Of a stretch of DNA of 64,000 nt, positions 56,818 to 63,489 are shown piece after piece (position 1 is the stretch's first letter; each line of letters opens with the position of its first letter). The notes below the pieces were generated by a model that did no database searches, was not told the DNA's origin, and saw only the letters and a list, made by a program, of their open reading frames with translations. Source of the DNA: Planctomycetota bacterium (GTDB taxonomy: Bacteria; Planctomycetota; GCA-002687715; CAIWVZ01); the NCBI GenBank assembly GCA_044222185.1, contig JBGANV010000002.1, forward strand, positions 282,061 to 346,060, written 5' to 3'. The position numbers and the translations under genes are program-made.

Positions 56818-57657
56818 TCACCCAGGCTTGGTCTCAGTTGGGATCGCGGCGAGACGGGTGAACGTTCCCGCCTCGTCGACGCTGCCGAACGCGGGCGGTG
56901 GGCCCTCGAGCAAGGCGACCCAGTCGGCGGACTCGATCCGGACGACGTCGATCGACTGGCCGACCTTCGCGGCGAACTCCGCGGTGCCCTGCGCGTCGCG
57001 ATGGGTGACCGCCACCAAGCGGCGCGTGCGACTCGAGAAGTCGAGCTCGCGGGCTGCGGCGATGCAGTGCTCACACCCGGGATCGAACACGAACACGTAG
57101 GCGTTCGACACTCCCGCGATCCGCACACGATGTTCGACACCCGTCGGCGGTGCGCCTGACGCGCAGACCCACGCGACGACGGCGACCACGATGGCACCCG
57201 CGGCACTCGTGTGGACGAGCCCGGAGCGGCTCCACTCGCTGCCGGTCGACAGTCGATGCCAGCGCGCGACGAGCGCGACCGCCAGCAACTCCAACGTCGC
57301 GACGACTCCGAGCCATTTCGGCACCGCGGCCCACGCGCCGAAGCATCCACAACTCGAGCCTCGTGCCCACATCACGAGATGGTGAACGCCCAGGCCCGCA
57401 GCGAGGCCGATGGCGCCGCGTGCTCCGACACGGTTTCGGACGAACAGCGCGAAGACGCAGGCCAGGGCGTCGACCGCCACGACGATCCCGCCCAGGAGGC
57501 GTGCGGGCACGTCGATCCCGTACCCGCTGCGAATCGCATCGTGAATCTCGGCAGCGGCGACGTGTGGAGCTGCAACCTTGGCGACGAGCGCCACGGCGAA
57601 GATCGCGGCCCCGACGAGGCCCGCTGCGGCGATGGCCCTGGCTCCGTTGATCGTCAC
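56818..57657 (-). CDS. MauE/DoxX-like membrane protein (SCGCFG motif) fused to a C-terminal thioredoxin-like CxxC domain; a putative membrane thiol-disulfide oxidoreductase
   Basis: Five TM helices and the MauE signature GSSCGCFGAW. The C-terminal thioredoxin-like segment is VFVFDPGCEHCIAAAREL. A GTG start at 57657 overlaps the upstream stop as GTGA. The ORF track lists a GTG at 57750, which would overlap the upstream gene by 97 nt. Confidence 0.6.
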   Translation of the reverse strand: MTINGARAIAAAGLVGAAIFAVALVAKVAAPHVAAAEIHDAIRSGYGIDVPARLLGGIVVAVDALACVFALFVRNRVGARGAIGLAAGLGVHHLVMWARGSSCGCFGAWAAVPKWLGVVATLELLAVALVARWHRLSTGSEWSRSGLVHTSAAGAIVVAVVAWVCASGAPPTGVEHRVRIAGVSNAYVFVFDPGCEHCIAAARELDFSSRTRRLVAVTHRDAQGTAEFAAKVGQSIDVVRIESADWVALLEGPPPAFGSVDEAGTFTRLAAIPTETKPG

Positions 57658-58811
57658 GCCGCCGCTCCAGCAGCCTGCCGGCGGCGACGCGCGACGACTC
57701 GGGGAACCGCGAACGCGCCCGCGCAGAGAGCGACAACCCCGAGGGCCCACGCCGCCATGGGGATGGCGTGCGTGTCGCGTCCGGCGCCGAGCTTGGGAGC
57801 GCAGGCCGCCAGTCGCTCGATCAGTTCGTCGCCGGAGGTGGTCCCGTCCGTCGCATAGGACGTCCTGCCCGTTCGACCGTCCAGGATCTTGGCGACGGCA
57901 CCGAGCTCACGCGCCGGTTCGATGGCGAGCGTCGTGCCCGCGGGCAGCGGCGCGATGCTCGCCACGTCGACCTTCGACCGCAGCATCCCGAGCCGCGTCC
58001 GAAACGAGGCCGCCGTCGGCATCACGACGGGACCGAAGGTGCGGAAGTCCCCGAATTCGACGACGCGCGCCACTCCACCCTGGATGCCGCCGAGGATCGG
58101 AACCACGGGAAAGTCCGGCAGGAGGAGGTCGTTCGGCATGTTCTCTCCGCCCTCCTGAGGTGCCTTGCAGACGACCGGAGTCTCGAGGAACTCGACGGTC
58201 GTGAGTCGCAGTCCTCCGTCGATCCGCTCGAAGTGGCAGCGCCATCCGAGCAGGCCGGTGACGGCTCGACCGGCCATCGCGGCCTTCACGACCTCCTCGT
58301 GGAGTCCGAACAGGACGATCAGTCCCGTGGGCGTTCGCTCGGCGCTGACGATGGGCGTGCTCTGCACCTGGTCGATCCAGGGCGAGCGCCCGAACGGGCG
58401 GAGGTACGCCATCACGGGTGACGTGGACATCTCCACGAACTCCTCGTGCGGACGGATGAGCGCGTCGCAGTAGCCTTCACGGCGAGTGTTGAAGATCTGG
58501 ACGCCGTCGCGCCACGTCGTCACCTGCAGCGGGGTCGATCCATCCTGCAACGCGAGCTTGGCCCACCGCGCTGCCCCGGTGATCGGATTCCCCTGAACCT
58601 CCCACCGGCCGACCTCGTGGACGTTCGAGCCTCCCGCGGCCGCGGCTTCGCAGCGGTCACGCCATCCGACGTTCCAGGATGGCGCGAGATCGGCCTTCGC
58701 GGCCGCGAGCAGGAGAAGCCTCGCCTGCGCGACCGGCAGCGATTGCGCCGTGGCGCCGGCAGACAGCAGTACGGCCGTGATGACGATCCGAACGTTGTGT
58801 TGTCTCGACAT
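57654..58811 (-). CDS. Secreted protein of unknown function with a C-terminal hydrophobic segment and an Arg-rich tail
   Basis: GGGGAGAG ribosome-binding site, then MSRQHNVRIVITAVLLSAGATAQS (signal peptide). The C-terminus is HAIPMAAWALGVVALCAGAFAVPRVVARRRRQAAGAAA, a TM helix followed by a basic tail reminiscent of sortase/exosortase-type sorting signals. It has 4 Cys. Confidence 0.45.
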   Translation of the reverse strand: MSRQHNVRIVITAVLLSAGATAQSLPVAQARLLLLAAAKADLAPSWNVGWRDRCEAAAAGGSNVHEVGRWEVQGNPITGAARWAKLALQDGSTPLQVTTWRDGVQIFNTRREGYCDALIRPHEEFVEMSTSPVMAYLRPFGRSPWIDQVQSTPIVSAERTPTGLIVLFGLHEEVVKAAMAGRAVTGLLGWRCHFERIDGGLRLTTVEFLETPVVCKAPQEGGENMPNDLLLPDFPVVPILGGIQGGVARVVEFGDFRTFGPVVMPTAASFRTRLGMLRSKVDVASIAPLPAGTTLAIEPARELGAVAKILDGRTGRTSYATDGTTSGDELIERLAACAPKLGAGRDTHAIPMAAWALGVVALCAGAFAVPRVVARRRRQAAGAAA

Positions 58812-58825
58812 GACACTCTCCCCGC

Positions 58826-62870: not shown

Positions 62871-62970
62871 GTTCCCCTCCTGGGCCGCGGGGAGCGACGC
62901 GTCGCGGGTCACCGGCGCATCGCCCACCGCCGACGTCGAGGACGGACGCCCCGATCGAGCCGTCACGAGT

Positions 62971-63489
62971 TCAGCCGCAGCTGAAGGCCGCACACGGCAT
63001 GGTCGCGTTCGGGACGGGAACGCACGCCGCGCCGATGCAGAGGTGCGTCGTCTTGCCGGGTGCGCACGTGACTCCGGAGTCCGTCGCGGTGATCGTGCAG
63101 CTCCCCTGCCCGGCCGTTCCGCAGTCCAGGATCGTCGCGTTCGGGTCACACGAGCTCGGCTCGTTCGAGGTGGTGCAGAACTTCACGTACTTCTCGTTGT
63201 TGCAACCACTCGATGGACACGTCTGCTGCGTGTAGGGGCACGGTCCGCACGAACGCGTGTTCTTGTTGCAGTACGAGCCGCGCTGCATCCAGGACGTGCA
63301 GCTCTCGTTGCCTGGCCAGCACTGCTTGTACACGAGCGTCAAGCCGCCTCCGGCGACCTGCCCGCCGATGATCCCGCCGAGCGACAGACCGTCCTTCGAA
63401 TCCGGGCCGCTCTCCGGTGCGCCATTCATCAGGCCAAGAACGCCCGAAATGACCAACGCCGCACTCGCGACGAACTTGATGGAATTCAT
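62971..63489 (-). CDS. Small Sec-secreted cysteine-rich protein (16 Cys in ~145 mature residues) with a Gly-rich N-terminal segment
   Basis: GGAGGA ribosome-binding site, then MNSIKFVASAALVISGVLGLMNGAPESG. The mature region begins DSKDGLSLGGIIGGQVAGGGLTLVYKQCWPGNESCTSW...CGPCPY...CPSSGCNN... and ends ...MPCAAFSCG. It is the first gene of the co-oriented minus-strand cluster and sits downstream of a 430-bp non-coding region. Confidence 0.5.
   Translation of the reverse strand: MNSIKFVASAALVISGVLGLMNGAPESGPDSKDGLSLGGIIGGQVAGGGLTLVYKQCWPGNESCTSWMQRGSYCNKNTRSCGPCPYTQQTCPSSGCNNEKYVKFCTTSNEPSSCDPNATILDCGTAGQGSCTITATDSGVTCAPGKTTHLCIGAACVPVPNATMPCAAFSCG

Follow-up and report, generated by a model that had tools for sequence, protein, structure and literature searches.

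A conserved gene cassette from a Planctomycetota bacterium that may mature a small disulfide-rich exported protein

A five-gene cluster with a conserved four-gene core

Five co-oriented open reading frames (ORFs), named g1 to g5, occupy positions 56818-63489 on the minus strand of the 64,000-nucleotide stretch analyzed here (the window; positions 282,061 to 346,060 of contig JBGANV010000002.1, Planctomycetota bacterium, assembly GCA_044222185.1). The subject of this report is the cluster that these genes form, a candidate maturation system for the small cysteine-rich protein encoded by g1 (Table 1). An earlier note, made from the sequence alone, had described five head-to-tail genes on the minus strand. 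The ORFs were found at the coordinates given there, and an independent gene call on an identical Logan contig (L001, SRR28480390) returned products of the same lengths, 172, 790, 541, 385, and 279 amino acids (aa). When recomputed, the intergenic gaps from g1 to g5 are, in order, 100, 46, 14, and -4 bp, the last being a GTGA overlap; the 37 bp given in that note for the gap between g2 and g3 applies if g3 is started from the GTG at 60460, which makes its product 544 aa long. The G+C content at third codon positions (GC3) is 0.81-0.86 for each of the five genes, in a window of ~69% G+C, and a purine-rich Shine-Dalgarno-like stretch lies 5' of each start.

Neighborhoods of related genes were obtained by exact look-up of g3 family members. 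The order g1-g2-g3-g4 recurs in six other loci (L002, L003, L005, L008, L009, and L096), and BLASTP showed that g2, g3, and g4 are homologous across the loci at 22-43% identity, with the exception of the short g2 of L005. The flanking genes are different at every locus. For a housekeeping gene of the window, the best matches were Planctomycetota metagenome-assembled genomes at 70% identity, in keeping with a planctomycete source. Given that the order recurs in six other highly diverged loci, the gene arrangement is far beyond chance, and g1-g4 is a conserved four-gene core. MauE, encoded by g5 in the window, is an accessory part of the cassette, and its fusion to a CxxC domain is found only in the window among the seven loci. 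The earlier note had proposed domain searches and a search for co-occurring genes as checks on the cluster. Both were run and both spoke for it, since domain support was obtained at the level of the family and the genes for the Cys-rich, CarboxypepD_reg, C39/DUF1573, and anchored proteins stand together in seven loci. None of the outcomes that the note had named as refuting was obtained.

A chance adjacency of these genes, or their mere co-transcription without a common function, is hardly credible. A promoter could fit into the 100 bp that separate g1 from g2, and MauE is absent from two loci, but the four-gene order is kept in seven loci at 22-43% identity while all flanks differ, and the start and stop codons are tight or overlapping, so that synteny effectively refutes this explanation.

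Table 1. Features of the cluster (positions in the window) and composition of the cassette at the other loci.
Feature	Positions or source	Strand	Length or residues	Description
g1	62971-63489	-	172 aa	ATG start; ORF and independent gene call
g2	60498-62870	-	790 aa	ATG start; N-terminal signal or anchor, multiple beta-sandwich domains (CarboxypepD_reg)
g3	58826-60451	-	541 aa	ATG start; C39-like peptidase, transmembrane (TM)/lipobox module, DUF1573-like CxC domain, immunoglobulin (Ig)-like domains
g4	57654-58811	-	385 aa	ATG start; exported; C-terminal TM helix and RRRR tail
g5	56818-57657	-	279 aa	GTG start; MauE domain and CxxC domain
g1 leader	63361-63489	-	residues 1-43	N-terminal hydrophobic export segment, then propeptide ending ...GLSLGGIIGG; predicted cleavage after G43
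g1 predicted mature domain	62974-63360	-	residues 44-172	16 Cys; no Pfam family
g3 C39-like papain-fold peptidase domain	59912-60319	-	residues ~45-180	Candidate catalytic Cys57, His136; Asp152 at His+16
g3 internal module	59771-59899	-	residues 185-227	TM helix, RHLRLR loop, hydrophobic segment ending in lipobox-like LGGC (Cys227)
g3 DUF1573-like domain	59456-59755	-	residues 233-332	SCTCA motif (Cys276, Cys278)
g5 N-terminal MauE domain	57238-57657	-	residues ~1-140	CGC at residues 103-105 within SCGCFG (102-107)
g5 C-terminal CxxC domain	56818-57150 (incl. stop codon)	-	residues ~170-279	FDPGCEHC ... GPPPAFGSVDEAG; putative thioredoxin-like partner of MauE
Upstream non-coding region	63490-63922	-	~432 bp	From RDD-family gene to g1; presumed promoter or leader
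Cassette L002	ENA ERZ25072999		g1 cut by contig end, then 807/549/381 aa	No MauE
Cassette L003	GCA_029259775.1		175/826/552/394 aa	No MauE
Cassette L005	GCA_022072415.1 (Planctomycetota metagenome-assembled genome)		165/596/516/387/105 aa	MauE 145 aa
Cassette L008	GCA_973511895.1		170/775/508/353/112 aa	MauE 146 aa
Cassette L009	JGI 3300005836		176/812/532/390/108 aa	MauE 120 aa
Cassette L096	SRR8731049		183/816/507/431 aa	MauE 143 aa

The small Cys-rich protein and the C39-like protein

As first described, g1 encodes a 172-aa protein with 16 Cys, and all of the Cys lie downstream of residue 56. A word-based search for homologs returned only the protein itself, which is an orphan by this measure, and no g1 paralog is present elsewhere in the window. 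Counterparts at the syntenic position in L003, L005, L008, L009, and L096 share 14 invariant Cys in the alignment. A set of eight small proteins, two of them from a distant g3 clade (L011/L012 and L013), was then compared. Each of the eight starts with a hydrophobic export segment, and its leader is 39-46 aa long and ends in GG, GA, or AG, with Leu or Met at position -7 in seven of the proteins. The domain after the leader measures 114-138 aa. The post-leader domains contain 16, 18, 16, 16, 16, 16, 14, and 14 Cys. Random parity would give even counts in 8/8 proteins ~0.4% of the time, and even counts are expected when every Cys is paired.

The classical double-glycine leader consensus is L-S-x-x-E-L-x-x-I-x-G-G, and the leaders of L013 (LTAEEMLSSFGG) and L096 (RAELAAIVAG) come close to it. 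For the window protein the best leader register is ...GLSLGGIIGG|Q; of the two cleavage sites suggested at first, after LSLGG and after IIGG, the second is the one that fits this register best. A double-glycine peptidase of the C39 type would require just such a conserved GG/GA/AG leader with Leu or Met at -7. Neither the aligned g4 sequences nor the N-terminus of the window g2 showed a conserved GG of this sort. The profile of the g1 family also gave a borderline match (E 0.027) to bee-venom phospholipase A2 (1poc/8pih), in which several Cys and a C-G-x-x-x-x-G-x-C stretch line up. As the catalytic His/Asp show no conservation, the match is probably due to Cys composition, and it was rejected.

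A word-based search with g3 returned two matches, and an exhaustive profile search returned 83 cluster representatives at E<=1e-3, about twenty of them full length. The family statistics given here come from 40 members that were scanned or aligned. Pfam matches were obtained to Peptidase_C39 in 28 of the 40 (E<=1e-3, best 2.1e-16), to DUF1573 in 36 (best 5e-17), and to a HYDIN/VesB-like Ig domain in 19. The candidate catalytic residues Cys57, in D-C-G, and His136, in H-F-x-V, are invariant in these sequences, and such invariance across 40 diverged sequences points to an active protease. The AlphaFold2 (AF2) model of the N-terminal domain of g3 has a predicted local distance difference test score (pLDDT) of 75. 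When this model was compared with the PDB by Foldseek, the top 15 matches were all C39 domains of PCAT1 and LahT, and ComA followed lower among the significant matches; E values against C39 domains were 1.4e-6 to 2.5e-4, with TM scores of 0.58-0.65, the best matches having E 1.4e-6 and TM scores of 0.62-0.64. Asp152 stands sixteen residues after His136, the same spacing as in ComA.

Members of the g3 family have signal-peptide-like N-termini ahead of the C39 domain, and in the window protein a hydrophobic helix comes after basic N-terminal residues. Given such a start, the peptidase domain is predicted to face the periplasm, unlike the C39 domains of bacteriocin ATP-binding cassette (ABC) exporters and like FapD, a periplasmic C39 protease of the Pseudomonas Fap functional-amyloid system that is needed for amyloid secretion and has an unclear target (PMC5557850).

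Behind the peptidase domain lies the internal module. A Cys is found at the column of Cys227 in 38 of the 40 relatives, after a basic loop and a hydrophobic stretch of ~15 aa and mostly with Gly or Ala at -1, and 32 of the 40 show a strict lipobox-like pattern. The NCBIfam model "lipo-invert C-terminal anchoring domain" weakly matches the internal module of one relative (P0041). The module resembles an internal lipoprotein signal, and this could mean that g3 is split into an anchored protease and a lipoprotein.

In the DUF1573-like domain, Cys276 and Cys278 (S-C-x-C-A) are invariant in the 40 sequences. The NCBIfam OS_HP2 (seleno)protein model covers this region in 28 of the 40 relatives, with scores of up to ~42 bits in individually scanned members against a cut-off of 100. 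Since a UGC selenoprotein form of DUF1573 has been listed (PMC9312934), the OS_HP2 matches together with this form argue that the CxC motif is redox-active. Further NCBIfam results showed matches to choice-of-anchor D in seven members of the family, and weak matches to C39_FapD in two and to pilus_FilB in two.

The MauE protein, the partners g2 and g4, and the surroundings

The N-terminal half of g5 had been assigned to MauE with a SCGCFG motif. The motif is present and the Pfam cut-off is just reached: taken alone, this half scores 27.1 bits against MauE (PF07291, cut-off 27) over profile positions 7-127 of 128, a marginal pass, and a longer ORF of 310 aa scores 23.8. In a low-confidence model SCGCFG lies between predicted helices 79-98 and 107-138, and its predicted orientation is periplasmic. 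MauE replaces DsbB in E. coli, where it complements dsbB mutants and where its CXC motif is required (bioRxiv 10.64898/2026.03.05.709764), and the earlier suggestion that MauE-thioredoxin fusions drive disulfide formation agrees with this DsbB-like action via CXC. Phe-Gly typically comes after the CXC of MauE, which is located on the periplasmic side between helices 3 and 4, and a fusion to a domain of the thioredoxin superfamily is found in 8.2% of MauE entries (bioRxiv 10.64898/2026.03.05.709764). In its CXC followed by F-G, g5 fits the experimentally defined active-site signature of MauE. A word-based homolog search with g5 returned only g5 itself.

Within the C-terminal half of g5, CEHC occupies residues 195-198, and a GPPPAF-x-VDE-x-G stretch reads like a cis-Pro loop of the thioredoxin type. 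The single-sequence AF2 model of g5 has a pLDDT of 52 overall and of 55-75 in the CxxC domain. In this low-confidence model CEHC is placed at a strand-helix junction, and the order of elements is beta-alpha-beta-alpha-beta-alpha-beta-beta, which is compatible with thioredoxin. The C-terminal half alone had no Pfam match and no PDB sequence match (both E<=10), and Foldseek with the model gave nothing significant, the matches of highest probability being the thioredoxin-fold structures 2l5o and 5enu (E 0.5-1.4). Thus, of the earlier claim that this half is a CxxC thioredoxin, the CEHC motif and a compatible element order stood, while no profile matched and the fold matches were non-significant. 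The C-terminal half is taken as a putative thioredoxin-like domain, a likely assignment.

At three of the other loci (L005 12713-13030, L008 11222-11560, and L009 12264-12590), an anchored protein of 105-112 aa with an S-x-C-x-C-V motif is encoded between g4 and MauE. It resembles DUF1573 only weakly, with an hhalign probability of 21%, and the proposal that these CxC proteins are thioredoxins was rejected. The CxxC domain fused to MauE in the window may replace the CxC protein of these sister loci.

The abundance of thiol motifs bears on a different explanation, namely that g1 is a periplasmic thiol-rich metal or redox buffer resembling metallothionein, and that the papain-fold domain of g3 is either non-catalytic or of other specificity (e.g., for the cell wall) and is not a leader peptidase. 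A buffer of this kind would suit the very high Cys content of g1, which has no recognizable fold family, as well as the CxC/CxxC motifs that recur in g3, g5, and the small partner proteins. It would also suit the triad Asp that is not conserved in the g3 family, and the extracytoplasmic function (ECF)-type regulator genes upstream of the cassette in L008 and L009, as are common for envelope-stress or metal-response loci. We nevertheless consider this explanation very unlikely, since the Cys count is even in 8/8 mature domains and the association with the disulfide-forming MauE points to disulfides, not free thiolates. Moreover, Cys57 and His136 are invariant across 40 diverged sequences, the best fold matches of g3 are specifically double-glycine leader peptidases, and the loci contain no genes for metal transporters or chaperones.

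The description of g2 as a multi-CarboxypepD_reg protein was borne out by PF13620, which matches two stretches with an E value of 2e-17 and 63.7 bits against a cut-off of 32.3. Its syntenic homologs in L002, L003, L008, and L009 were found by BLASTP with E values of 4e-43 to 3e-20, and the short g2 of L005 (596 aa) gave only a faint domain match. Elsewhere in the window, a 1598-aa protein with seven CarboxypepD_reg stretches has as neighbors a 1212-aa protein with an S9 peptidase domain and a TIG/PKD protein (46374-51170 and 41371-46358, plus strand). Since large beta-sandwich or CarboxypepD_reg surface proteins are common in this genome, the domain type of g2 is not specific to the cassette.

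Six loci have a g4 homolog, 22-43% identical, in the corresponding position. The C-terminal TM helix and RRRR tail noted for g4 are present, and a hydrophobic helix with a basic tail is kept in 6/6 aligned homologs, being least clear in the L009 copy. There was no Pfam or PDB sequence match for g4, even with a six-sequence profile, and no relatives were found when the alignment was scanned against genome and metagenome contigs.

The main alternative is that the cluster would serve the biogenesis of a cell-surface fiber, pilus, or adhesin, with g2 and perhaps g1 as structural components and the same processing chemistry put to another end use. The PapD-like DUF1573/Ig part of g3 would then be a periplasmic chaperone, its C39 domain would activate secretion or assembly by cutting a component of the machinery, as proposed for FapD, and g1 would be a tip or cross-linking subunit and not a free product. 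In keeping with such a role, FapD is itself a periplasmic C39 protease needed for amyloid secretion (PMC5557850), and the matches of the g3 family include two members each for C39_FapD and pilus_FilB, seven for choice-of-anchor D, and 19 for HYDIN/VesB-like Ig; a prepilin-like N_methyl/SBP_bac_10 gene follows g3 in the distant clade, and the long beta-sandwich array of g2 is typical of surface proteins. We think this unlikely, since genes for an usher, outer-membrane channel, secretin, or amyloid-repeat subunit are missing from all of the loci, and the conserved GG is found in g1 and was seen neither in the aligned g4 sequences nor in the N-terminus of the window g2. In addition, the FapD and FilB matches are few and weak, and CarboxypepD_reg arrays are so common in this genome that g2 is not diagnostic.

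The non-coding leader upstream of g1, put at 430 bp in the earlier note, was found again as the ~432 bp between g1 and an RDD-family gene. The latter is co-oriented with the cluster and is itself preceded by SpoIIM-like, DUF58, MoxR, and DUF4350 genes. The ~432-bp region gave no Rfam match (E<=1) and no sigma-70-like site, and neither a convincing promoter nor a convincing terminator was found at the window cassette. Comparison of the g1 upstream regions of the window and four other loci revealed no common k-mers or ECF-like motif. The small ORFs in the window region are not conserved; 45-aa ORFs occur 5' of g1 in two loci but have no relationship to one another, and a conserved small gene was rejected. 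The PADLOC models of anti-phage defense had no match for g1-g5 at E<=0.01. On the other side of the cluster, positions 53613-54803 (minus strand) encode a secreted-looking protein of 396 aa with three tandem repeats of ~125 aa, each starting C-x-P-G-T-V, and PPPPP linkers; it belongs to no Pfam family.

Integrase or transposase genes flank the cassette at three of the other loci (L003 2532-2867 and 16017-18896, L005 17475-18640, and L009 13215-14504), which suggests a location in variable and possibly mobile regions; none was seen next to the window copy. Just upstream of the cassette, L008 (4770-5420) and L009 (4827-5465), but not the window, encode a sigma-70 region-4 (ECF-type) regulator. 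In the distant g3 clade, g3 is preceded by genes for a small Cys-rich protein and for a 343-388-aa protein that is unrelated. Profile comparison gave no link between the 343-388-aa protein and g4, and the gene after g3 (L011 3578-4489, L013 3360-4397) is of the prepilin-type N_methyl/SBP_bac_10 (DUF1559-like) kind and is not a g4 homolog. A fragmented cassette was seen at L095 (9583-12676, GCA_902826835.1), where the g3 homolog is broken into pieces of 146 and 381 aa, with two short genes (222 and 294 aa) after it. CarboxypepD_reg is encoded at another place and on the other strand, and this locus may be decaying or mis-assembled.

Proposed maturation route and relation to known systems

On balance, and with moderate confidence, we regard the cluster as one copy of a cassette that is conserved in uncultured Planctomycetota, apparently limited to this phylum, and serves to mature a small exported protein rich in disulfides. 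The synteny, the GG leaders, the C39 fold, and MauE support in silico the earlier proposal of a dedicated maturation system for a disulfide-rich secreted protein. Starting from the observed gene conservation and domain identities, we infer the catalytic steps of g1 maturation as follows. The g1 precursor would carry an N-terminal Sec-type hydrophobic segment and a propeptide of ~20 residues ending in double glycine (...LSLGGIIGG|Q), and once exported it would remain tethered or carry the propeptide. The periplasm-facing C39 domain of g3, with Cys57/His136, would cut after the GG (G43) and free a domain of ~129 aa. The 16 Cys of this domain would be oxidized to eight disulfides, with oxidizing equivalents provided by the DsbB-like MauE of g5 through its CGC, and the window MauE would pass disulfides on via the fused periplasmic CxxC domain in a DsbA/MauD role. 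The CxC of the DUF1573 domain of g3 may serve as a further site of thiol-disulfide exchange or isomerization beside the protease. The large beta-sandwich array of g2 and the anchored periplasmic protein g4 would be obligatory partners, and may be scaffold, chaperone, or the final destination of the product. Of the earlier idea that a C39 domain removes a Gly-Gly leader, the conserved GG/GA/AG leaders speak for the substrate, but the peptidase is not the classical cytoplasmic domain of an ABC transporter; it is predicted to be periplasmic and to act on a Sec-exported precursor.

Several observations weigh against this reading. The window g3 itself stays below threshold for both of its named domains, with 15.7 bits (E 0.014) against PF03412 (Peptidase_C39, cut-off 22) and 15.6 bits (E 0.017) against PF07610 (DUF1573, cut-off 26.1). 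A close homolog (P0002) scores 17.6 bits (E 0.0034) and 23.5 bits, respectively, and is also sub-threshold for PF03412. Since its own Pfam score is sub-threshold and its relatives match, the C39 homology of the window protein is only transitive. The original assignment of g3 as C39-like plus DUF1573 is thus supported through the relatives (28/40 and 36/40) and the C39 fold match, but not by the Pfam scores of the window protein. Asp152, present in the window g3, is Ser or another residue in many relatives. The leaders match the classical consensus in part, with an aliphatic residue at -4 in only 4/8, and the leader register of L003 is ambiguous. The MauE gene follows g4 in 5/7 loci and is absent from L002 and L003, where oxidation must therefore use general machinery, and the thioredoxin fold of g5 has neither sequence-profile support nor a significant fold match. 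The synteny covers only seven loci, the window and six others. Finally, the proposed mechanism leaves g2 and g4, half of the conserved core, without explanation.

A more specific form of the proposal takes up the internal lipoprotein-type signal of g3. Here, a hitherto unrecognized, Planctomycetota-specific periplasmic machine would be formed when g3 is split at this signal into a membrane-anchored double-glycine protease and a CxC-redox lipoprotein, which together with MauE would turn a tethered Sec-exported precursor into a knotted protein with eight disulfides that is handed to g2/g4. We regard this form as unlikely. If true, the split-g3 machine would be a Sec-dependent, ATP-independent counterpart of the bacteriocin PCAT systems.

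The best structural matches to the g3 peptidase domain are the peptidase-containing ABC transporters (PCAT) of the PCAT/AMS type (PCAT1, LahT, and ComA). Like these proteins, g3 has a C39 domain of papain fold with a Cys/His pair, and in both systems the substrate gene adjoins the peptidase gene and the leader ends in GG/GA with a hydrophobic residue at -7. In contrast to the transporters, neither g3 nor any other called gene at the loci has an ABC transporter or ATPase domain. The peptidase stands after a signal peptide, its predicted location is the periplasm, and DUF1573 and Ig-like domains are fused to it. The substrate also differs, in having a Sec-type hydrophobic segment of its own and a domain of 114-138 aa instead of a short peptide. 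Given that there is no ABC transporter and that the peptidase is predicted to be periplasmic, the cassette falls outside the PCAT class.

FapD shares several features with g3. It is a Sec-exported periplasmic C39 cysteine protease, as predicted for g3, it is encoded in an operon with exported partners, and GG/GA sites are its suspected targets. FapD is, however, free-standing and has no TM, lipobox, or DUF1573 parts, and its target is still unclear, whereas the cassette has a conserved candidate substrate with a leader. Equivalents of FapA, B, C, E, or F are missing from the cassette, as are amyloid repeats and an outer-membrane barrel, and no Fap families were found in the Pfam and NCBIfam scans of g1, g2, g4, and g5. 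In view of the missing Fap subunits and channel, the cassette is not a Fap system.

The likeness of g5 to MauE/MauD, known from methylamine dehydrogenase (MADH) maturation and the DsbB-like MauE pathway, lies in a MauE with CXC-F-G that has a CxxC domain as partner or fused to it and whose gene adjoins that of a small disulfide-rich protein (six disulfides in the MADH small subunit, eight predicted in g1). Unlike that system, the cassette lacks mau genes and a tryptophan-tryptophylquinone enzyme, its client is an orphan protein of no relation to the MADH small subunit, and the MauE of the sister loci is free-standing and follows the 105-112-aa CxC protein instead of being joined to a thioredoxin-like domain. 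With the DUF1573/OS_HP2 family, g3 and its relatives share the S-C-x-C-A motif, the first Cys of which is selenocysteine (UGC) in some DUF1573 proteins (PMC9312934). In contrast, g3 has no selenocysteine, and the OS_HP2 scores are far below the NCBIfam cut-off.

In its proposed mode of action, the cassette would resemble a maturation system for double-glycine leaders to which an oxidative-folding module of the MauE/MauD type has been added. A fusion of MauE to a CxxC domain is by itself a known architecture (bioRxiv 10.64898/2026.03.05.709764). For the cassette as a whole, literature on DUF1573 with C39 or with Planctomycetes, and on C39 with VKOR, held no description. The combination of a Sec-exported GG-leader precursor, a periplasmic C39-TM/lipobox-DUF1573 protein, g2, g4, and an optional MauE was not found in the searched literature or in the scanned Pfam, NCBIfam, and PADLOC models. 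The cassette combination is thus apparently undescribed, in agreement with the earlier note, which had recognized no described system in it.

To our knowledge, periplasmic C39 proteases are almost uncharacterized. The cassette offers a conserved, adjacent candidate substrate with a recognizable leader, which makes the specificity of a periplasmic C39 domain directly testable. MauE, whose general role as a DsbB-like oxidase was established only recently, is found here beside a dedicated client system and partly fused within it, so that the cassette would be a natural enzyme-client pair for study of the MauE pathway, including a possible redox role of the DUF1573 CxC. The product family consists of orphan proteins of ~115-140 aa, for which seven to nine disulfides are predicted, and belongs to a phylum in which few secreted proteins have been characterized. 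The g1 family may represent a new disulfide-rich fold, with possible antimicrobial or structural uses.

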